Sequence record: MK295204
Length of the DNA: 64,000 nucleotides
Reading direction: 5' to 3' (one strand)
Source: Shigella phage vB_SdyM_006
Shown: piece by piece, positions 9,085 through 42,523 of the stretch
How the letters are laid out: every line of letters begins with the position of its first letter
Position numbering within the stretch: the first letter of the stretch is position 1
Position numbers and translations under genes: made by a program
Notes under the pieces: model-generated
Told to the model about the DNA's origin: nothing
What the model saw: only the letters and a program-made list of their open reading frames with translations
The model's database searches: none

Positions 9085-10956
9085 TTAGTCTAATTTATCA
9101 TTTAATATTGGTTTAGCAATATGTTTTGTTCTATGGATAACTTCTTTTTGTTTACCTTCGTTAAACCCACGAGAAGCAGGATTTCCAAGATATCCACAGG
9201 TACGACGGACAACAGACATTTTCTTTACATCCATTTCACCACATTTTGGACATTTAAACCCATTTTCTGTAGGAATAAATTCTCCATGGAATTCACATGT
9301 AAAGCATTGGTCAACAGGAGTATTTGTTCCAAAATAATCTAGATTTTCTACAGCATAATCCCAGACCTGTTCTAATGCATCAAGATTATCCTTCATATTA
9401 GGGAGCTCAACATAAGAAATATGACCACCAGATGCAATACGGTGATAATCCTTTTCAAATTCAATTTTCTCAAATGGATTAACTTTACGTTCAACATCAA
9501 GATGGAAACTATTTGTGTACCAACCTTTATCTGTAATTCCTTTAACAGAACCAAATTCTGCTTTATCTAATTTGCAGAATCTGTGACATAAACTTTCTGC
9601 GGGAGTAGAATAAAGACTAAATGCATATCCAGTTTCTTCTTTCCATTTAGAAAGATAATAATTTATTTCTTTAAGAATATGTTTACCAAATTCTTGGGCT
9701 TCTTTATTATCAAATGGTTCATCATTAAAAATCAGTTTTAATGTTTCGTGTAAACCAATATATCCTAGCGAAATAGAACTTCGTCCATTTTTAAATAATG
9801 ATAATATTTCGTCATTAGGGTTCATACGAACACCAAAAGCGCCACCACAATATAAAATTGGAGCTACAGAAGCTTTTGCACCACGTAAAGAATCAATTCT
9901 AGTCATAAGAGCAGTATAACAGAGGCCAAGACGATCTCTCAATGATTGGATATATGATTCTTTAGATAAATTGTCACTACCTAATTCCAGGGCTATTCTA
10001 GGAAGATTTAATGTGACTACACCTAGATTATTGCGTCCATCTAAAATTTCTTTGCCATTTTCTTTATAGACACTTAAAAAAGATCTACACCCCATAGGAG
10101 AAACTGGGACCGAACTACCGGTTATTTCTTTATTAATTTTAGACGAAATAATATCTGGGTACATTCTTTTAGCTGAACATTCTAATGCTAATTTTTTAAT
10201 AAAATAATTAGGGTCTTCAGGTTTAAGATTAATTCCTTCTTCAATAAAGAAGACTAATTTAGGAAATATCGCAGTTACTTCATCTTTGCCTAAGCCTTTA
10301 ATTCTATTTTTAAGAATAGCTTCTTGGATAACTGTGCCGGCCCATGAAGTAGAAGTTCCAAAAGAAATAGTCACAAATGGCGTTTGTCCATTAGAGCTAA
10401 AAAGCGTATTTATTTCATATTCATACGCTTGGAAAGCGTCATAAACATCTTTTTCTGTCTTCTTCATAGCATAATCTTCCCAATCAGGAATACGCCATTC
10501 AAAAGCTTCATTAAGATGTTTTTGGTATGTAGCTTCTACGTAAGGCTCAAGAACAACATCAACATTTGCAAATGTTGTTCCACCATATTGATGAGAAGCA
10601 ACTTGGGCTGTGACTTGGGCCATAATTGCACAAGCTACACCAATTGATTTAGGTGTTTCTATTTCCGCGTTACCAAGCTTAAATCCATTTTCAAACATGC
10701 CTTTTAAATCAACTAAACAACAATTTGTAAAAGGCAGTGATACACTATAATCTAAGTCATGATAATGAATAATACCTTTGTCGTGTGCTTCTACGACATT
10801 AGAAGGCAATCTACTACGAGCCACGTACTTGGAAGCAATTCCGGCCAGTAAGTCACGTTGAGTAGGAAAGACACCATAGGGCTTGTTTGCATTTTCTGTA
10901 GAAAGTTCATTTGATTCACGATTACATACCTCATTAATTTGAGAAATTAAGTTCAT
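9085..10956 (-). CDS. nrdD: Anaerobic ribonucleoside-triphosphate reductase NrdD (glycyl radical enzyme)
   Basis: 623 aa; C-terminal glycyl radical motif RTCGYLG and Zn-ribbon CxxC pairs; continuous ORF with no intron interruption. Confidence 0.95.
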   Translation of the reverse strand: MNLISQINEVCNRESNELSTENANKPYGVFPTQRDLLAGIASKYVARSRLPSNVVEAHDKGIIHYHDLDYSVSLPFTNCCLVDLKGMFENGFKLGNAEIETPKSIGVACAIMAQVTAQVASHQYGGTTFANVDVVLEPYVEATYQKHLNEAFEWRIPDWEDYAMKKTEKDVYDAFQAYEYEINTLFSSNGQTPFVTISFGTSTSWAGTVIQEAILKNRIKGLGKDEVTAIFPKLVFFIEEGINLKPEDPNYFIKKLALECSAKRMYPDIISSKINKEITGSSVPVSPMGCRSFLSVYKENGKEILDGRNNLGVVTLNLPRIALELGSDNLSKESYIQSLRDRLGLCYTALMTRIDSLRGAKASVAPILYCGGAFGVRMNPNDEILSLFKNGRSSISLGYIGLHETLKLIFNDEPFDNKEAQEFGKHILKEINYYLSKWKEETGYAFSLYSTPAESLCHRFCKLDKAEFGSVKGITDKGWYTNSFHLDVERKVNPFEKIEFEKDYHRIASGGHISYVELPNMKDNLDALEQVWDYAVENLDYFGTNTPVDQCFTCEFHGEFIPTENGFKCPKCGEMDVKKMSVVRRTCGYLGNPASRGFNEGKQKEVIHRTKHIAKPILNDKLD

Positions 10957-16915: not shown

Positions 16916-17109
16916 TACTGTTCCTTTTTAATTAAACGAGATGCATAAGGAATTTCGTCATTAAATTTAATAAAACGTTCTTTTTCAATGAGAAGTCCAA
17001 GACCATAAACAACTATACCAGTTAAACCAGTATACATAACAATATACTCCATAGATTCAACAATAATTGTATCACCTATGTTAATAAGACCTAATTCTGA
17101 TAGCTTCAT
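16915..17109 (-). CDS. Small membrane protein
   Basis: 64 aa with one hydrophobic segment. Confidence 0.4.
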   Translation of the reverse strand: MKLSELGLINIGDTIIVESMEYIVMYTGLTGIVVYGLGLLIEKERFIKFNDEIPYASRLIKKEQ

Positions 17110-17110
17110 T

Positions 17111-17296
17111 TTAACCTCTATCTTTTAAAGATTGACGACGTTGGTCGTATTGATATTCTTGAACAAGACGTTCTATTTGTGACTGTGACAGAACTACACA
17201 ATCATGACCTTGGTCTAGCATATACGAACCAGATTCGGTAGATGTTACTCTTACATCTAAGTTTCTGTTTTTATTATCAACCAAATAAAAATGCAT
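17111..17296 (-). CDS. Hypothetical protein
   Basis: 61-aa ORF. Confidence 0.35.
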   Translation of the reverse strand: MHFYLVDNKNRNLDVRVTSTESGSYMLDQGHDCVVLSQSQIERLVQEYQYDQRRQSLKDRG

Positions 17297-17422
17297 TAAT
17301 CCTCCAGAAACTGCTTTTTATGTTTTTGTTTACGATTTGAATCTTGTTCACATTTCTTTTTATCTTTGTGAACTGAAGCACGATTAAAGTCGTGTTTAGC
17401 TACAAAATTATTTTGTTTCATA

Positions 17423-17686
17423 TTACCTCAACTGTGAGTCTTTAGAACCACGTCTGTTGTAATAAGATGTGGTTATAATATCATGACTTTCTTGACAAGT
17501 ACAACAATAATTACAATTTTTTATTATTTGTCTACGACGTTCAGGGATCTCTTCACCACAATCAAGACAGTATATATCATTATTTGAAGAAGAATTGAGC
17601 AGGCTTAACCTGGCCCACTCAATAGCATCTTTTATGATAGCTTCTTTAGTTGCAAAACTATCATCTGAAGGACCCCATCCGTTCAT
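17423..17686 (-). CDS. TraR/DksA-family C4 zinc-finger protein
   Basis: 87 aa; CLDCGEEIPERRRQIIKNCNYCCTC matches the CxxC-x17-CxxC DksA/TraR finger. Confidence 0.55.
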   Translation of the reverse strand: MNGWGPSDDSFATKEAIIKDAIEWARLSLLNSSSNNDIYCLDCGEEIPERRRQIIKNCNYCCTCQESHDIITTSYYNRRGSKDSQLR

Positions 17687-18001
17687 TTAAGCACCTATAA
17701 AAACCATCATTGCAGCAATAAGAACATTTTCATGAGAAGCCGATAAATCAAAAGTAAATGTAGTAGGGCCTACATGTTTAAGATTTTTATACGCAGCTGG
17801 GTTAAGATGTTCTTCAAAATTAATAGAAATATTGTGTTTGCTCATAATAGGTAAAGCTTGTTCAACGTTAAAACACGGATTAAAAATAATCCAAGAATCA
17901 CGAAGACGGATTTCAAAATTGTGCTTAAAGCAAACCACTTCCAGGCCTAATTTTTCTGCTACTTTTTTATTAAGATAAAATACATTTTCTGCACTAATCA
18001 T
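17687..18001 (-). CDS. Hypothetical protein
   Basis: 104-aa ORF. Confidence 0.45.
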   Translation of the reverse strand: MISAENVFYLNKKVAEKLGLEVVCFKHNFEIRLRDSWIIFNPCFNVEQALPIMSKHNISINFEEHLNPAAYKNLKHVGPTTFTFDLSASHENVLIAAMMVFIGA

Positions 18002-18570
18002 TTCTGCACCATAAAATTGTAAATAAATCGATAAACATCATCAGGGTTTTTCTGTTCCCAGATATCTAATTTTGGCTCATGGGAGACAATCTTCTGATAA
18101 TGATTGTGCACATTTAAATGATTTTGATGAAGCCAATTAACAAATGCTTGGCCAATTCGCTGAGTACCCTTATCAGCTTCTTTATCCCAATACATGTACC
18201 AATCATGCATGTCACAGTAATTTAAAAGTTTAGGGATGTCTTTTTGAAGAGAATCAATAAATTTTTGTTTTTCATGCGCAGATAATGCTTCGTAATCATC
18301 AAGAGTCATTGTGGGCTCACATTTTGTATTGCTGAATTTTAAAGCATCTACATACATATTAAAGGCTTTAACATTTTTATTTCCATTAAAACCTAAATCA
18401 TCAATGCAGACGGTTTTGACTTGTAGGTTATTAGTCAGAACAGAAATACTTCTGTTAGATGGATTCCAATGACTAACAACTTCATATTCAATAACATTTT
18501 TATTTTGGCCTGAAACACCAACATAAAACTTTTTACCGATATTTAAATCAGTCAGTTTAATACTAGACAT
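17998..18570 (-). CDS. Hypothetical protein (N-terminus resembles the 19228-19839 ORF)
   Basis: 190 aa; N-terminal K-L-x-DL-x-G-x-x-FYVG motif shared with the 19228-19839 product. Confidence 0.5.
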   Translation of the reverse strand: MSSIKLTDLNIGKKFYVGVSGQNKNVIEYEVVSHWNPSNRSISVLTNNLQVKTVCIDDLGFNGNKNVKAFNMYVDALKFSNTKCEPTMTLDDYEALSAHEKQKFIDSLQKDIPKLLNYCDMHDWYMYWDKEADKGTQRIGQAFVNWLHQNHLNVHNHYQKIVSHEPKLDIWEQKNPDDVYRFIYNFMVQK

Positions 18571-18803
18571 AAATCACCGTTTAAAGTTTTTAGAATGATA
18601 AGATTTATCTTGAGCAACTGGTAAGTCAAGAACGTCAGAAATACCAATTTTAGCTGGGCGAGCTGTCAGCCTATCTTGGACATCAACTTTCTTTTCAAAC
18701 TGACCAGCTAACAGGTAATATAAACGATCATTAGACATAATTCTCTCCATTTGTTTTAATGAGGCTATACTATTACAAAATATAGCCTTTGTACACTTAT
18801 TTT

Positions 18804-19226
18804 TTAGATTTTTTCAAAACCTGATTCGTCGCAATCATTTTCATCATAAAACACGGTGTACCCAAGTTTTATCATAGCTTGTAGAGTAGCATTCATGATA
18901 TCAATATTTTCTTCAGAATGGTTCATATTTAAATAAACATAAGCAGAATCACCTGTATGCTCTTTATACTCGTCTTCATTAATTGTCACAACAAAAATAG
19001 ATTTTGGTGATTTGTTTCGTGTAAAATACAGTCGAAAGCACTCTAAATTGTAAGCAATAAGTTCACAAATGGAATTAGTTTTATTTCTCACATTTAAAGA
19101 TTCAAATGAATCTTTAAAAATAGATGAATTTAATTCTTTAGATTCTAAATTGATGCAATCAATAATATCGTTTACTGCTTTGATTTTATCATCACAAAGA
19201 ATCAAAGCTCTAGAACACATTCCCAT
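18804..19226 (-). CDS. Hypothetical protein
   Basis: 140-aa ORF. Confidence 0.5.
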   Translation of the reverse strand: MGMCSRALILCDDKIKAVNDIIDCINLESKELNSSIFKDSFESLNVRNKTNSICELIAYNLECFRLYFTRNKSPKSIFVVTINEDEYKEHTGDSAYVYLNMNHSEENIDIMNATLQAMIKLGYTVFYDENDCDESGFEKI

Positions 19227-19227
19227 T

Positions 19228-19839
19228 TTATTGTCCCTCTACTTTTTTAGTCATGGAATCAAAAACTAAACCAACACTTTCATTCAAAACAGATTTTAAA
19301 GAATTAAACATCTGTCCATCATTCATATGACTCAACCGATCATAAGCGACCCAACCTGCATCATTAGTAAATGTACCCCATTCAGATTCAAAAAATGCAC
19401 GAACTTTCTCGATTTCTTCTTTAGTTGGCACTTTTAATCCAACAAAAGTGTCTTCTAATTTTTGTTCCAAGTTACGAGACGTTTCTCTGTATACTGCTTC
19501 TAAAGAACCAATAAGAATTGACGGATCACGAGTATACGCTAAAGCTTCTTCATAAGTATAAAATGAAAAGTGATTATTGTAACGAGAACGATCAGGATTA
19601 GGCATAATGATGTTCATATCTTGTAAAGAACGCTTAACAATTTGGTCTGGGTCATAAGGCGATTTACAATCTACCCACCAGGCCCATGCCTCAGTATATC
19701 TGAATTTTTCATTGTATGGCAAAGAAACAACGGTCAATTTAACTGCATTATTAATATTAGAACCACTAATAGTTTGACCATACCCAACATAAAAAGTAAA
19801 TCCAGGAACAAGGTCTTCAAACTTAACATTCTTAATCAT
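19228..19839 (-). CDS. Hypothetical protein (N-terminus resembles the 17998-18570 ORF)
   Basis: 203 aa; FTFYVGYGQ N-terminal motif. Confidence 0.5.
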   Translation of the reverse strand: MIKNVKFEDLVPGFTFYVGYGQTISGSNINNAVKLTVVSLPYNEKFRYTEAWAWWVDCKSPYDPDQIVKRSLQDMNIIMPNPDRSRYNNHFSFYTYEEALAYTRDPSILIGSLEAVYRETSRNLEQKLEDTFVGLKVPTKEEIEKVRAFFESEWGTFTNDAGWVAYDRLSHMNDGQMFNSLKSVLNESVGLVFDSMTKKVEGQ

Positions 19840-19868
19840 GATAATTCTCCTTTGATTTGATAAAGCTT

Positions 19869-19897
19869 ATAATATCATAGACCAAGGCAAAGTAAAC
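19869..19897 (-). promoter_or_regulatory. T4-type early promoter (minus strand): -35 GTTTAC, 17-nt spacer, -10 TATTAT, A-rich upstream
   Basis: Minus-strand reading GTTTACtttgccttggtctatgaTATTAT, about 30 nt upstream of the 19839 start codon and just after a terminator hairpin. Confidence 0.5.
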
Positions 19898-19914
19898 AAT
19901 TATTTTCATTTAAA

Positions 19915-19940
19915 ACCAAAAAAGGAACCTTTTGGTTCCT
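19915..19940 (-). terminator. Hairpin GGAACC-AAAA-GGTTCC followed by U6 on minus strand
   Basis: Read directly; after the stop of the 19940-20314 gene. Confidence 0.5.
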
Positions 19941-20314
19941 TATGATAACGATAACAAATACTTAGTCTTTTTACAAAGTGTCATAATTTCATCTAATGCA
20001 GATTGTCCTGCACTACAAGTCGAGTCGTAGATTTCTTCTCCTAAAGAAATTATTTTATCTAATATTTCTGTAGATGATTCTATTTTTGTTGGGAAATTTC
20101 TAGTGTAAGCACCACCACTCCCTAGATATATCTCAACAAATGTGTCTATTAATTCTGGCATATCTTCATAGAAATCTTCATATACTTTATGATGCGCATA
20201 GCTTTTTGTTTCGAAGTGATATGAGTGCATGTAAGAAGAACTTATTAAACATAATCCAATAAATTCACTATGCCTTGTAGACTTGGGTTTTACAAACGTA
20301 GAAAAATCATTCAT
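19940..20314 (-). CDS. Hypothetical protein
   Basis: 124-aa ORF. Confidence 0.5.
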   Translation of the reverse strand: MNDFSTFVKPKSTRHSEFIGLCLISSSYMHSYHFETKSYAHHKVYEDFYEDMPELIDTFVEIYLGSGGAYTRNFPTKIESSTEILDKIISLGEEIYDSTCSAGQSALDEIMTLCKKTKYLLSLS

Positions 20315-20609
20315 CGTGTACTAATTCCTTTTTAAGATTGTATACGTATTCTTGTGCTGCTGTTTTGCCATCTTCACTACATTTGTTATTTTGACAGTTT
20401 GTTTCTTCCCATTTGGTTCTAATGAAAGCATAAAACTGCTCAGATTCTTCTTTAGAAGGTTCTTTCAATTTACTGTACACAGACATGGCACCTTCAGCGT
20501 ATACATTAAAATATTTATCGTCTGATGCATACGCGCTAGAAAACCCAATGCATAGTGTTAAAACACATGCAATTATGCCAGGTGAAAAGTAATTTTTGAA
20601 CTCGGCCAT
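20307..20609 (-). CDS. Secreted/periplasmic small protein
   Basis: 100 aa; hydrophobic N-terminal segment ending AYASD (signal-peptide-like). Confidence 0.45.
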   Translation of the reverse strand: MAEFKNYFSPGIIACVLTLCIGFSSAYASDDKYFNVYAEGAMSVYSKLKEPSKEESEQFYAFIRTKWEETNCQNNKCSEDGKTAAQEYVYNLKKELVHDE

Positions 20610-20636
20610 AAGGCCTCCATTATTCTAGTAAATCAT

Positions 20637-20849
20637 TTAATGACTTATAATCTTAAATTTATAAATCATCTTGACTTCAGAGAAATAGTTGAGTAGCTTT
20701 TTATACTGCAAATAATCAGCATGACTTTGGGTTTTATCAAACTCAAGCTCTGCCATTTTTAAACACGGCTTAAATTCTCTTATATGAATACCTAGTTCTA
20801 ATGCTGACATATTTCTTAAAGTTTTTTTAGAAAGCATATCAATAGTCAT
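20637..20849 (-). CDS. Hypothetical protein
   Basis: 70-aa ORF after tk. Confidence 0.4.
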   Translation of the reverse strand: MTIDMLSKKTLRNMSALELGIHIREFKPCLKMAELEFDKTQSHADYLQYKKLLNYFSEVKMIYKFKIISH

Positions 20850-20870
20850 AAAATCTCCAGTCAGTTTATA

Positions 20871-21437
20871 TTATTTATTAAATTCAAAATAATGCTTACG
20901 ACAAAATGATTTGTACTTATCATCACCTCCTATTTCAATTGTGTCTCCTTCTTTAACTGCTTTTCCTGAAGGGCTACACTTTGCTGTATGGGTTGCTTTT
21001 CTTCCACACCAACAAACTGCTTTTAGTTCTTCTAATTTATCAGCCCAGGCTAATAAAGCAGCTGAGCCTTCAAACAATTCACCTTTAAAATCAGTTTTTA
21101 ACCCAAAGCACATAACTGGGATCTGATGATTGTCGACAATTTTTGTCAATTGAAGAACCTGAGCCTTTGTTAAAAATTGACATTCATCAATAAGAATAGC
21201 TGCATTGTTTGTACCAATACTTAAATAAAGATTATACAAATCAGTTTCTTTAGAAAATAAAATACACTGTTCTTTTATCCCAACCCTACTAGAAATAACA
21301 CCTTTATCACGAGTATCAATATCGGGTTTAAGAAGTAAACAACTCATTTTTTGCTCTTTATAATTATTATTAACGGATAACAATTTTAAAGATTTACCAG
21401 CTGCCATAGAACCATATACAAAATACAATTGAGCCAT
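20871..21437 (-). CDS. tk: Thymidine kinase
   Basis: P-loop YGSMAAGKS and C-terminal Zn cluster CWCGRKA...CRKH; start trimmed to MAQLYFVYGSM by alignment to the T4 Tk N-terminus. Confidence 0.9.
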   Translation of the reverse strand: MAQLYFVYGSMAAGKSLKLLSVNNNYKEQKMSCLLLKPDIDTRDKGVISSRVGIKEQCILFSKETDLYNLYLSIGTNNAAILIDECQFLTKAQVLQLTKIVDNHQIPVMCFGLKTDFKGELFEGSAALLAWADKLEELKAVCWCGRKATHTAKCSPSGKAVKEGDTIEIGGDDKYKSFCRKHYFEFNK

Positions 21438-21438
21438 A

Positions 21439-21651
21439 TTATTCCTTAATCCATTTAACCCAAAGAACACATTCTGCTTCTTTAGGTTTACCTGTTTTTG
21501 TTTTATAAGTATATACTACTTTGTGTTCTAAAAATTTAATAGGGTCTGTTAAGCCTACCCATGTCTTAGTTTCTCTAATAGATTCATGATGACTCAGAGA
21601 AATAAGGCGTCCTTCTTTTTCCATTTTAAATGGATGCGGTAAATGTGTCAT
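21439..21651 (-). CDS. Hypothetical protein
   Basis: 70-aa ORF immediately upstream of tk. Confidence 0.45.
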   Translation of the reverse strand: MTHLPHPFKMEKEGRLISLSHHESIRETKTWVGLTDPIKFLEHKVVYTYKTKTGKPKEAECVLWVKWIKE

Positions 21652-23949: not shown

Positions 23950-24318
23950 CTAAATTGTATCAGTAAATGTTCTGTTAATTACATCTTCTTTCTGTTCATC
24001 AGTTAAAGAATTAAATCTAACAGCGTATCCAGAAACTCGGATAGTTAACTGTGGGTATTTTTCTGGATTTTCTCTTGCGTCTAATAACATTTCTTTGTTC
24101 AATACATTAACATTTAGATGCTGGCCACCTTCGATTCGTGGAGCAAATTCTAAAGCTAAATCTTTTTGAGTAGAATTACCAAATGAAGTCATTGGAACAA
24201 CTTCATCTTCTTTAAAATATTTTGATGCTAAAATTCTACAATTATTTGTTTCTGTATCTACTAAAAAGATTGTTCCATAAAAAGGACCAGAAACAAGTTG
24301 TCTTGCTTGAATTGACAT
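23950..24318 (-). CDS. Autonomous glycyl radical cofactor (GrcA/YfiD-like)
   Basis: 122 aa; [11 protein letters not shown] ... [31 protein letters not shown] closely matches E. coli GrcA including the RVSGY glycyl-radical motif. Confidence 0.85.
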
Positions 24319-33127: not shown

Positions 33128-33204
33128 TGGTACACCTACGGGAATTCGAATCCCGGTTACACGCTCGAAAGGCGTGGGTCCTAGACCACTAGACGATAGG
33201 TGCA
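33128..33204 (-). tRNA. tRNA-Glu (anticodon UUC)
   Basis: Manual fold: acceptor GCACCUA/UAGGUGU, anticodon stem CACGC with loop CUUUCGA, T-loop UUCGAAU, encoded CCA. Confidence 0.7.
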
Positions 33205-33210
33205 TTAAAA

Positions 33211-33302
33211 TGGAGGAGAGTATGGGATTCGAACCCATGGAACAGCGTAACTGTCCAACGGTTTTCAAGACCGTCTCAATAATCCATCTCTGACAACTCT
33301 CC
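33211..33302 (-). tRNA. tRNA-Ser (anticodon UGA), class II
   Basis: Perfect acceptor GGAGAGU/ACUCUCC, anticodon loop CUUGAAA, long variable arm, T-loop UUCGAAU, CCA. Confidence 0.8.
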
Positions 33303-33309
33303 AATATAA

Positions 33310-33627
33310 TTAAAACAGTAGACTATAAACAGTACCTTTACAATCTATAGGTTGTGTTTTTGAATATTCTTTAAATAGATTTAAATAACCAATTTCTTCA
33401 GGTTCCCATTGTCCTTCTAAACCATAACATGAACAATGTGAGCCGTTAACTTCCCAAAATATATCATTACTATCTTTGAAGATTACAGTAGCATACCCAG
33501 AATAATCTTCATAATCGTAATATGCTAAAATGATTTCTTTGTCATTAAGTGAATCCATAGGGATTTGGAATTCATGACAGATGTCTTCTTTTGAAGTAAA
33601 CAGTTCCATAAACACATTAGTTTTCAT
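33310..33627 (-). CDS. Hypothetical protein between tRNA genes
   Basis: ORF track gives 33310-33720, but the N-terminal part overlaps tRNA-Asp; trimmed to internal Met (about 105 aa). Confidence 0.4.
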   Translation of the reverse strand: MKTNVFMELFTSKEDICHEFQIPMDSLNDKEIILAYYDYEDYSGYATVIFKDSNDIFWEVNGSHCSCYGLEGQWEPEEIGYLNLFKEYSKTQPIDCKGTVYSLLF

Positions 33628-33650
33628 ATCAATATCCTCAAAATTAATTT

Positions 33651-33726
33651 TGGCGGTCTTACCGAGAATCGAACTCGGTGCTGTTCCGTGACAGGGAACT
33701 ATGTTAACCAGGTACACCATAAGACC
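33651..33726 (-). tRNA. tRNA-Asp (anticodon GUC)
   Basis: Acceptor GGUCUUA/UAAGACC, anticodon stem GUUCC with loop CUGUCAC, T-loop UUCGAUU, CCA. Confidence 0.8.
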
Positions 33727-33756
33727 TTAAAAATGTACCCATCCGGCTTTCCAGTC

Positions 33757-33857
33757 TGGTGAAGGGTTGTCACCTCTAGTTTAAACCTGCTAGTCAAGTA
33801 ATAATTGCATATCGTCCAATTATCAAAACCGTCTAGGTTATATTACACCACTTCCTA
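33757..33857 (-). ncRNA. Possible small stable RNA in the tRNA cluster (not foldable as a canonical tRNA)
   Basis: About 100 nt between tRNA-Asp and tRNA-Gly, begins with tgg (CCA-like 3' end on minus) and contains local hairpins; T4 carries small stable RNAs in the equivalent position. Confidence 0.2.
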
Positions 33858-33919
33858 GAATACCGTCTAAGCGGACTTGATCGACGTAGATTACACCATA
33901 TACGTCTGATTGTGGAATT

Positions 33920-33993
33920 TGGAGCGATCTACGGGTATCGAACCCGTATCTTCTGGGTGGAAACCAGAAATAATAGCCATTATACTAAGATCG
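33920..33993 (-). tRNA. tRNA-Gly (anticodon UCC)
   Basis: Perfect acceptor GCGAUCU/AGAUCGC, anticodon stem UCUGG with loop UUUCCAC, T-loop UUCGAUA, CCA. Confidence 0.8.
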
Positions 33994-34615
33994 CATATTT
34001 ATTAATAAATCTTCTTGCTTGGGTATGACTTAATCCTATATGTTTAGCAAATTTATTTAAGTTACCTCTTATTGAAATATCAAATGATTTTAATATTTCT
34101 AATCTATAATTAATTTCGTCTTTTGACAATGTAGAGGCATTATTAATAGAAATTTTGTTTTTAGATATATCCGAATGTCTCTTATTTTTAAAACCAAACG
34201 AATTTTTCTTTTTGCTAAAATCATATAATCCGAGTCTAAGTCTTTTCTTAAATGTATTAACTTGTTTACTTATAGTTAATTTAGATTTTGGCAATGAATT
34301 TATATAATCCCAACCACCTTCACCACCAACTTTTAAATTATATGTATTTTTGCTTTTAACAAATTTTTCTGTAACTATTTTGGCTTCATGTATAAACATG
34401 TCATACTTATTTTTATGAAATTTTAAAATAGTTTTTTCAAAATTTTCTTTGCCATATTTTTCTATGGCTTTTTTCAAAATCTTACCTGAACCAAAATATC
34501 CATCTTCTAAATCTTTGGTTTTATGAACACCTATATAAATTTTATTATTTATTTTATTTTTAATTTTGTATGTATAATAAAACATTATAGCCTTATTTAT
34601 CTTTTGGTACTCCAT
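33980..34615 (-). CDS. GIY-YIG homing endonuclease (seg-like) inside the tRNA cluster
   Basis: 211 aa; N-terminal YTYKIKNKINNKIYIGVHKT ... GYFGSG is a GIY-YIG motif; lysine-rich C-terminal DNA-binding region. Confidence 0.75.
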   Translation of the reverse strand: MEYQKINKAIMFYYTYKIKNKINNKIYIGVHKTKDLEDGYFGSGKILKKAIEKYGKENFEKTILKFHKNKYDMFIHEAKIVTEKFVKSKNTYNLKVGGEGGWDYINSLPKSKLTISKQVNTFKKRLRLGLYDFSKKKNSFGFKNKRHSDISKNKISINNASTLSKDEINYRLEILKSFDISIRGNLNKFAKHIGLSHTQARRFINKYAILV

Positions 34616-34779
34616 TCTTTATTAGTTGCTTTATTAACAGCAGTAGAATAAGAATTTTTAATATCTTCTGTAACAGAATAGCCAGTTAACATAGTAGAAA
34701 TTAAAATAACATATCCAAGCATTAATAAAATACAAGATAAAAATCCTGCAATAATAAGAATTGTACCTAAAGTAGTCAT
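34597..34779 (-). CDS. Small membrane protein (trimmed from the 34597-34890 ORF, which overlaps a tRNA)
   Basis: Internal Met yields about 60 aa with one long hydrophobic helix. Confidence 0.35.
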   Translation of the reverse strand: MTTLGTILIIAGFLSCILLMLGYVILISTMLTGYSVTEDIKNSYSTAVNKATNKEWSTKR

Positions 34780-34798
34780 ATTGTTCTCACAAATTATT

Positions 34799-34875
34799 TG
34801 GTGACCCACCATGGAATCGAACCATGCTCCAACGCTTATGAGGCGTTCGCTTTCAACCAGTAAGCTAGAGGGCCT
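34799..34875 (-). tRNA. tRNA with anticodon CAU (Met or Ile2-type)
   Basis: Anticodon stem AACGC/GCGUU with loop CUCAUAA, T-arm CAUGG-UUCGAUU-CCAUG, CCA; acceptor has one mismatch. Confidence 0.65.
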
Positions 34876-34882
34876 TGCAATT

Positions 34883-34966
34883 GGTGGCACCGGGTAGACT
34901 CGAACTACCGAAGGCCGAAGCCTGGAGATTTACAGTCTCCTGTCATTGCCGCTAGACTACGATGCC
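34883..34966 (-). tRNA. tRNA-Tyr (anticodon GUA), class II
   Basis: Anticodon stem GGAGA/UCUCC with loop CUGUAAA, long variable arm, acceptor GGCAUCG/CGGUGCC, CCA. Confidence 0.7.
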
Positions 34967-35011
34967 TTTTCTTATCAATAACGACTAAAAATAATCGTTA
35001 TTAATCAGAAT

Positions 35012-35088
35012 TGGTACACACTACTGGATTCGAACCAGTGACCTACGGTTTAGAAGACCGTTGCTCTATCCATCTGAGCTAAGCATGC
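35012..35088 (-). tRNA. tRNA-Arg (anticodon UCU)
   Basis: Anticodon stem ACGGU/ACCGU with loop CUUCUAA, T-loop UUCGAAU, CCA; acceptor stem has three G-U pairs. Confidence 0.6.
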
Positions 35089-35089
35089 A

Positions 35090-35380
35090 TTATAAGTACT
35101 GTTTAATCAGTTCTTCGTTATTTTTAAAAAGAATAAAAATATTATCACGAACTTCAGTATCTGAGATATGCCATTTCATAGCATCAATTAAAATGTCTTT
35201 TGGGATCATATTATATAAATTATTTAGTAAAGCAATATTATTTATATCAATATCAACTTCAAATAATTCAAAAATACAACACGAAATAGAATCATAAAAA
35301 TCTTTAATGTCTATTTCATACTTAGACAAATTATTTATAAATTCTGTTTTAGCTTGTTCTGGATTATGTGCTTTAAACAT
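35090..35380 (-). CDS. Hypothetical protein
   Basis: 96-aa ORF between tRNA-Arg and tRNA-Trp. Confidence 0.45.
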   Translation of the reverse strand: MFKAHNPEQAKTEFINNLSKYEIDIKDFYDSISCCIFELFEVDIDINNIALLNNLYNMIPKDILIDAMKWHISDTEVRDNIFILFKNNEELIKQYL

Positions 35381-35402
35381 TTTTATTCCTATTATTCTAA
35401 AA

Positions 35403-35477
35403 TGGCAGGCTCTGTAGGAATCGAACCCACGTCTTCGGATTTGGAATCCGGTATTCTACCGACTGAACTAAGAACCT
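35403..35477 (-). tRNA. tRNA-Trp (anticodon CCA)
   Basis: Anticodon loop UUCCAAA, D-arm UAGUUCAGUCGGUAGAAU, T-loop UUCGAUU, CCA. Confidence 0.7.
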
Positions 35478-35478
35478 T

Positions 35479-35562
35479 TGGCGGGCAGTGTAGGATTCGA
35501 ACCTACGTCGTCAAATGACACGGATTAACAGTCCGCTGCTTAATCCACTCAGCCAACTACCC
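35479..35562 (-). tRNA. tRNA-Asn-like (anticodon GUU) with an unusually long variable arm
   Basis: Anticodon arm CGGACUGUUAAUCCG is nearly identical to E. coli tRNA-Asn, but the variable region is about 13 nt (GUCAUUUGACGAC), giving 84 nt. Confidence 0.55.
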
Positions 35563-41971: not shown

Positions 41972-42523
41972 ATGATTTTTTCCTTTTTTGATCCTGTAGA
42001 ATATAGAGGAAAACTAACAACCAATATATTCAGAAACTATAAAGTTTATATAAAAAGAGTTTTATCTAATTATAAACTTAAAACATACTATATTTCTGGC
42101 TCACCGAGACCAGAAGAACTTGCTAATGCATTATATGGTAATCCACAACTATATTGGGTCTTATTAATGATCAATGACAATTATGACCCATTCCATGGCT
42201 GGATTAAAGGACAAGAAGCCTCATATCAGAGCGCTATACAACGCTATGAGAACGCAGGAGGACAACAAGTACTATACCATATAGATAATAATGGTGAACG
42301 TTATTATAACCTAGTAGAAGATCCTGATAACCCAGGCCTTTGGTACGATAAAGGCGATAAAGATATGGAACACTTGCAATATAATGGGCCTTTAGCTGCT
42401 ATAGATATTCTTGAAGATTCAATTCTTAAAAACGAAGAACGACGAGAAATAAAAATAATTGACCCTAAAGAAATTCAATCTTTTATTAGTGCAATTATTA
42501 GAGAGATGGAAAAAACACTATGA
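41972..42523 (+). CDS. 53: Baseplate wedge protein gp53
   Basis: 183 aa; MIFSFFDPVEY ... YYISGSPRPEELANALYGNPQLYWVLLMINDNYDP near-colinear with T4 gp53. Confidence 0.85.
   Translation: MIFSFFDPVEYRGKLTTNIFRNYKVYIKRVLSNYKLKTYYISGSPRPEELANALYGNPQLYWVLLMINDNYDPFHGWIKGQEASYQSAIQRYENAGGQQVLYHIDNNGERYYNLVEDPDNPGLWYDKGDKDMEHLQYNGPLAAIDILEDSILKNEERREIKIIDPKEIQSFISAIIREMEKTL

Follow-up and report, generated by a model that had tools for sequence, protein, structure and literature searches.

What does a short motif common to the N-termini of two nearby phage proteins signify: common descent, or a resemblance confined to the first residues of otherwise unrelated chains? The question arises in a 64,000-nucleotide stretch of Shigella phage vB_SdyM_006 (sequence record MK295204; hereafter the window), where two minus-strand open reading frames (ORFs), P1 (17998-18570; 190 amino acids (aa)) and P2 (19228-19839; 203 aa), lie 0.7 kb apart, or ~1.3 kb from start codon to start codon. 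The original prediction, which placed both ORFs correctly, proposed that they may encode diverged paralogs with similar N-termini. We find that the two proteins have one domain in common, carried on two different tails. The window comes from a T4-like phage of the genus Bragavirus and is 99.1% identical to Proteus phage phiP4-3 over positions 17000-21500; P1 is 100% identical to vB_SdyM_006 gp080 and also corresponds to phiP4-3 gp229.

Residues 5-22 of P1 (KLTDLNIGKKFYVGVSGQ) fit the predicted motif exactly. The equivalent segment of P2 (residues 6-22, KFEDLVPGFTFYVGYGQ) reads FYVGYGQ, with one residue fewer after FYVG, and the literal pattern fails there unless a gap is allowed. With a one-residue gap, 10 of the 17 motif positions are identical. 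The similarity of the N-termini is real, even though P2 takes the pattern only in this gapped form. BLASTP reports no match between P1 and P2, likely because its heuristic seeding misses so short a motif, and Smith-Waterman alignment with shuffled sequences was used in its place. The optimal alignment pairs P1 residues 1-33 with P2 residues 2-39 across a 4-residue gap and scores 52. Out of 5000 shuffles in each case, 2 attain this value for the N-domains and 28 for the full-length proteins. Among the 464 six-frame ORFs of the window, P1 and P2 are each other's best match, by a narrow margin (52 versus 46-49).

P2 displays the domain in its complete form. Residues 5-105 (19525-19827, minus strand; limits as in the Pfam match) align with positions 2-104 of the 105-position Pfam profile PF23772, Phage_g100, at 87.9 bits (E = 1.2e-24) against a gathering threshold of 27 bits. 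P2 carries all of the family's motifs: the N-terminal F-E/x-D-x-x-P-G...Y..YG, the central S-L-x-D-M-N/G and Y-N-x-N, and the C-terminal F-Y..-D/E-A..-Y/F. The protein also matches phrog_2978 and phrog_20970, the latter over its full length (E = 9e-107). Its AlphaFold2 model, with a predicted local distance difference test (pLDDT) score of 81, places six β-strands at residues 15-19, 32-37, 42-45, 52-60, 63-71, and 91-93, followed by a capping helix at 96-104. The g100 family occurs in 223 phage records (tblastn with S16 gp62 as the query), mostly from Klebsiella, Enterobacter, Salmonella, and Serratia phages, with three from Escherichia phages. Its gene stands directly after the rI.-1/DUF5856 gene in the Straboviridae phages S16, CHI14, 92A1, SJ_PmiM, and Pm5461; in FBB1 it comes after rI and a 50-aa ORF, and no DUF5856 annotation is present there. 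P2 occupies this usual site, directly downstream of the rI.-1/DUF5856 gene. By sequence and position, P2 is the phage's regular copy of Phage_g100, a family that is already catalogued.

The remainder of P2 (residues 106-203; 19228-19524, minus strand) is a C-terminal extension with predicted helices at residues 106-131, 140-152, 154-170, and 174-202, and with mean pLDDT values of 88-92 in 10-residue blocks over residues 141-200. Orthologues of P2 are seen in Proteus, Morganella, and Providencia phages, where the helical extension is also present; tblastn finds the extension in 12 records only, from Bragavirus, Gualtarvirus, and Providencia phage relatives. A third, word-indexed homologue search yielded only additional close orthologues of the Morganella type.

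The N-domain of P1 (residues 1 to ~85; 18316-18570, minus strand) appears to be a diverged and shortened version of the same domain. The top Pfam match of P1 residues 1-90 is Phage_g100 (15.4 bits, E = 0.041, profile positions 2-66 only), and the top PHROG match is phrog_20970, the family of P2 (E = 0.0057, below threshold). A hidden Markov model (HMM) of eight P2-family N-domains, from which P1 and its orthologue SJ_225 were excluded, places the P1 ORF second among the 464 (E = 7.7e-4; next, 0.39) and gives the P1 N-domain 17.5 bits, compared to a maximum of 9.7 in 5000 shuffles. The similarity extends beyond the first 20 residues, so the result that the original prediction named as its refutation, likeness confined to those residues on unrelated folds, does not hold for the N-domain. 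Aligned with Pm5461 gp087, a P2 orthologue, P1 reaches a Smith-Waterman score of 69 (z 9.1; attained by 2 of 20000 shuffles) in an alignment that runs to P1 residue 74 and pairs VCIDDLGF with VCIDKNGF.

SJ_225 (P0002), the 210-aa orthologue of P1 in SJ_PmiM, has an N-domain strongly unlike that of P1; this SJ_225 domain likewise resembles Phage_g100 (Pfam E = 0.01, profile positions 3-104) and the P2 N-domain (BLASTP E = 7e-5). A profile of the P1 and SJ_225 N-domains aligns by hhalign with the P2-family N-domains at a probability of 96-96.6% (E = 4e-9 to 6e-10) over 79-82 columns, spanning P1 residues 1-82 and P2 residues 2-105 and bringing a second motif into register (AFNMYVDALKF against FSFYTYEEALAY). 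P1 retains DL..G..FYVG and AF..Y.DALKF and has no SLxDMN/YNxN segment, of which SJ_225 has a degenerate form only.

Structure prediction agrees with the profile alignments. In the AlphaFold2 model of P1, the N-domain (pLDDT 74-87) has strands at residues 14-19, 27-31, 41-45, 51-55, and 67-70 and a helix at 73-80. These elements correspond one to one with those of P2, save for strand 63-71 of P2 and the loop that follows it, which are absent in P1, and the modeled P1 barrel is ~24 residues and one strand shorter. The predicted common fold is a β-barrel of five to six strands with a C-terminal capping helix. A Foldseek search of BFVD with the P1 model returned, after P1 itself, a 199-aa protein (E = 1e-5) and A0A192YBJ9 (E = 6e-5). 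The second of these, a PF23772 protein and confirmed P2 orthologue, is gp083 of Morganella phage MP1; the first is probably SJ_222, a P2 orthologue of the same length.

The C-terminal halves have a different history. The C-domain of P1 (residues 88-190; 17998-18309, minus strand) belongs to phrog_36657 (E = 2.5e-58), and homology between the C-domains of P1 and P2 is ruled out by an hhalign probability of 0.2%. In Pm5461 and PM2 this half of P1 is a stand-alone gene of 103 aa: tblastn matches in these phages cover only P1 residues 88-190, at 79.6% identity, and the Pm5461 copy is gp084. These homologues occupy the same site as P1, after the 58-aa gene, but lack an N-terminal domain, their coding sequence beginning at the methionine equivalent to Met88 of P1. 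P1 is therefore a chimera of a g100-like N-domain and an unrelated helical C-domain, and the proposal that P1 and P2 are diverged paralogs holds for their N-domains but not over the whole length. A related-locus search with the C-domain alignment found phiP4-3 and Pm5461 only. An exhaustive profile search with P1 and SJ_225 against 1.84 billion representative proteins returned three long repeat proteins besides P1 and the 103-aa C-domain protein. The repeat proteins are spurious as relatives of P1, as Pfam scans indicate weak matches summed over many repeats: one is of low complexity, one has eight matched MBD stretches, and one is a Big_2 repeat protein. In the MBD-type artefact (P0010; 1316 aa, eukaryote-type, E = 7e-6 against the profile), the score stems from the repeated FRSKKDALRYIETGD, which resembles FYSKDDAMKYIENP of SJ_225.

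The start of the C-domain, YEALSAHEKQKFIDSLQKDIPKLLNYCDMH (P1 residues 92-122; window 18205-18297), resembles helices of E. coli SdhE/YgfY. SdhE is the sole, weak NCBIfam match of the C-domain (16.2 bits, E = 0.0076, positions 31-66 of the 88-position profile), and E. coli SdhE chains are its only PDB sequence matches (E = 0.6-0.9 over 31 residues). Membership in the NCBIfam family has a cut-off of 120 bits and comprises a full-length five-helix domain with an RGxxE motif, which sits in the N-terminal part of SdhE. That part has no counterpart in P1 and the score is far below the cut-off, and we rejected the C-domain as an SdhE/Sdh5 flavinylation factor. The resemblance may reflect chance or a remnant.

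Several observations weigh against reading the two N-domains as homologous. The P1 N-domain misses the Pfam gathering score (15.4 versus 27 bits), full-length P1 has no Pfam match up to E = 1, and by Pfam's rule P1 is properly termed g100-like, not a member of PF23772. Against a broader g100 profile, P1 scores only 8.4 bits, a value near the 99.9th percentile of shuffled sequences. Used as a single sequence, the P1 N-domain reaches an hhalign probability of 36% over 33 residues, so the full-domain alignment hinges on SJ_225 as a bridge, itself only weakly similar to the P1 N-domain (BLASTP E = 1e-3). The P1 model was built from three sequences, its C-terminal half cannot be relied on (pLDDT below 55), and the modeled N-domain may have been biased toward the g100 fold by the SJ_225 row. 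The Foldseek matches come without alignment ranges and with root-mean-square deviations of 15-22 Å, owing to the superposition of two domains together. No solved structure matches the barrel significantly, and a PDB sequence search with the N-domain profile returned nothing below E = 0.9.

The least improbable alternative is chance, whereby two AT-rich phage ORFs with unrelated domains would each have come to begin with a short hydrophobic, glycine-containing motif. The blank BLASTP comparison, a Smith-Waterman score barely above those of the next ORFs, the 8.4 bits from the broad g100 HMM, and the sub-threshold Pfam match (E = 0.041) all speak for it. It is nonetheless largely refuted, and we consider it very improbable, given that g100 families rank top for the P1 N-domain in both Pfam and PHROGs, that a profile from which P1 was left out still places it second of 464 ORFs, that the comparison with Pm5461 gp087 reaches z 9.1 through residue 74 and the hhalign probability 96%, and that the predicted elements agree in order, with one confirmed and one probable P2 orthologue as the top Foldseek matches. 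The likeness of the N-termini is homology, not chance.

A second alternative accepts a common origin for the first ~20 codons only, through recent partial gene conversion or recombination of the 5′ end. Proximity is in its favor, as the genes lie close together in a region prone to recombination, and among sister phages the N-domain segment does behave as an indel. The DNA, however, carries little trace of such an event. No repeat of at least 18 nucleotides (nt) was found between the 5′ ends of P1 and P2, and the aligned motif DNA is identical at 27 of 54 nt with a longest identical run of 11 nt. Moreover, P2 of the same genome is a poorer match to the P1 N-domain (Smith-Waterman 52) than are the P2 orthologues of other Bragaviruses (63-69), which argues for old divergence rather than recent conversion; the same comparison found no resemblance of the P1 N-domain to distant g100 proteins. 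We consider this explanation even less probable than chance. Least probable of all is a common N-terminal signal, such as a capsid-targeting or export peptide, on two unrelated proteins: variable proteins of T4-type phages are known to carry recurring short targeting sequences at their N-termini, as in the leader of the T4 internal proteins, and the strongest identity does fall in the first ~20 residues, but both models predict a folded barrel whose first strand is formed by FYVG, the similarity carries on to residues 62-82, the segment belongs to a 105-residue globular Pfam domain kept across the 223 phage records, and P2, with an early-type promoter ahead of it, is not located among late or structural genes.

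The homologous N-domains and unrelated tails are best explained by treating P1 and P2 as partial paralogues that probably arose when a domain was duplicated and shuffled within a hyperplastic early region of a Bragavirus phage. DNA alignment with Pm5461 shows that the N-domain segment is a clean in-frame indel, and nucleotide identity between the window and SJ_PmiM is 40-68% in the N-segment compared to 72-86% in the C-domain segment downstream. We propose that a Bragavirus-type g100 barrel was duplicated long ago and that the duplicate would have been fused in frame to the phrog_36657 gene, which encodes a Bragavirus-specific helical domain. The fused barrel would then have diverged fast, losing its best-conserved loop motifs (SLxDMN and YNxN), while Pm5461 and PM2 would have lost the N-domain or never gained it. 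Sister phages thereby display three states, the C-domain alone or the C-domain joined to either of two very different N-modules.

The borders of the module have a distinctive sequence. In SJ_PmiM the N-domain module is flanked by the same TGAAATG at both ends, and the Pm5461 junction is TGAATATG (L002 2480-2800, L003 2493-2503, and window 18310-18573). These borders would be explained if the whole domain had been deleted or inserted in frame through microhomology.

The two genes lie in a stretch in which all genes are on the minus strand, in the order denV, regB, vs, tk, rI, the DUF5856 (rI.-1-like) gene, P2, a 140-aa ORF, a 58-aa ORF, P1, a NinX-like gene, and a DksA-like gene, with imm further along. 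In T4-type genomes, a gene stretch of this kind is one of the variable ("hyperplastic") early regions. P1 is thus off the family's usual site, two genes further downstream. Where a single unrelated ORF had been predicted between the pair, there are two: the 140-aa ORF (18804-19226, minus strand; phrog_15323), which is unrelated to the g100 domain (E = 2.7 against the g100 HMM), and the 58-aa ORF (18574-18750, minus strand; phrog_15157). The stop codon of the latter lies 3 nt ahead of the P1 start, so these two genes are probably co-transcribed. Upstream of P2, the DUF5856 stop codon is overlapped by a terminator-like hairpin (19941-19922, minus strand), with AAGGAACCAAAAGGTTCCTT and a T-run behind it. 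Next comes a putative early-type promoter (19896-19869, minus strand), recognized by a consensus scan and its sequence, with GTTTAC-N16-TATTAT and an upstream TG; we take GTTTAC-N16-TATTAT to be of the T4 early-promoter type. Pm5461 has an annotated promoter at the corresponding site.

The g100 family takes its name from g100 of Yersinia phage phiR1-RT, which was flagged in a toxicity screen yet proved non-toxic under pBAD control (PMC6893735). Family members are acidic, with isoelectric points of 4.6-6, which counts against DNA binding. The weak fold matches of the barrel are SH3/Tudor-like: the RDM15 Tudor domain (7de9), the UHRF1 tandem Tudor, the eIF5A N-domain, and DUF1653 (3be3). PADLOC defense-system models gave no match to the P1 or P2 proteins. 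Based on the acidity, the early-type promoter before P2, the non-toxicity of phiR1-RT g100, and the weak Tudor, eIF5A, and DUF1653 matches, our best guess is that these are non-essential early accessory proteins in which the barrel would bind another protein and the variable tails would serve as effector or oligomerization parts. Under such a scheme, acidic cytoplasmic proteins produced early during infection would use a small SH3/Tudor-like module to dock onto a host or phage protein, the variable helical tails would supply an effector or oligomerization function, and the barrel of P1 would be an optional add-on to its C-domain.

A bolder version, which we regard as unlikely, makes the barrel an exchangeable targeting module that sends different helical effectors, the P2 extension and the phrog_36657 domain of P1, to the same host factor. 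If true, P1 and P2 would be two effectors on one target, and an arms race with host defense would account for how rapidly the P1 N-module diverges, disappears, and is replaced from one sister Bragavirus to the next. The finding itself provides neither a function nor a new kind of system. Its gain is in annotation: a hypothetical protein without a family (vB_SdyM_006 gp080, phiP4-3 gp229) becomes a g100-like N-domain joined to a phrog_36657 C-domain, and Phage_g100 acquires a truncated and very divergent branch that reveals what the barrel can do without.

Other features were observed elsewhere in the window. At 23950-24318 lies a 122-aa minus-strand ORF whose phiP4-3 annotation is autonomous glycyl-radical cofactor (GrcA/YfiD-like), while the full-length nrdD is a different gene (9085-10956); phage genes of the GrcA/YfiD type are already known from T4. 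Nine tRNA genes (Glu, Ser, Asp, Gly, Met, Tyr, Arg, Trp, and Asn) form a minus-strand cluster at 33128-35562. Near position 42000 both GC skew and AT skew flip sign, as would fit a change of coding strand from minus to plus.

Comparison with known systems places the locus within familiar territory. Like the members of PF23772, the P1 N-domain has this family as its best match and the same predicted order of strands and helix; unlike them, it scores below threshold, lacks the SLxDMN...YNxN segment, lies ~1.3 kb downstream, and is joined to a different domain. P2 also departs from the members found outside Proteus, Morganella, and Providencia phages. Those of S16 (gp62), CHI14 (gp108), 92A1, and FBB1 comprise 131-148 aa, and the members outside these hosts' phages, such as S16 gp62 and CHI14 gp108, have a short tail, whereas P2 has ~100 extra helical residues. 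With the SH3/Tudor-like barrels (7de9, UHRF1, eIF5A, and 3be3) there is no significant match, sequence similarity, or common motif, and the likeness concerns fold class only, not membership. Terminator-plus-promoter cassettes (PeSL-type) and modular gene shuffling are typical of T4-type variable regions, and as in such cassettes, a hairpin and an early-type promoter stand right upstream of P2 and the presence or absence of a module differs among sister phages. The case is one of ordinary domain shuffling for so variable a genome region, and the locus offers a clean, small example of in-frame domain gain and loss in a T4-type hyperplastic region: unlike in the PeSL cassettes, the unit that is shuffled here is not a whole gene cassette but an in-frame protein domain within an ORF.

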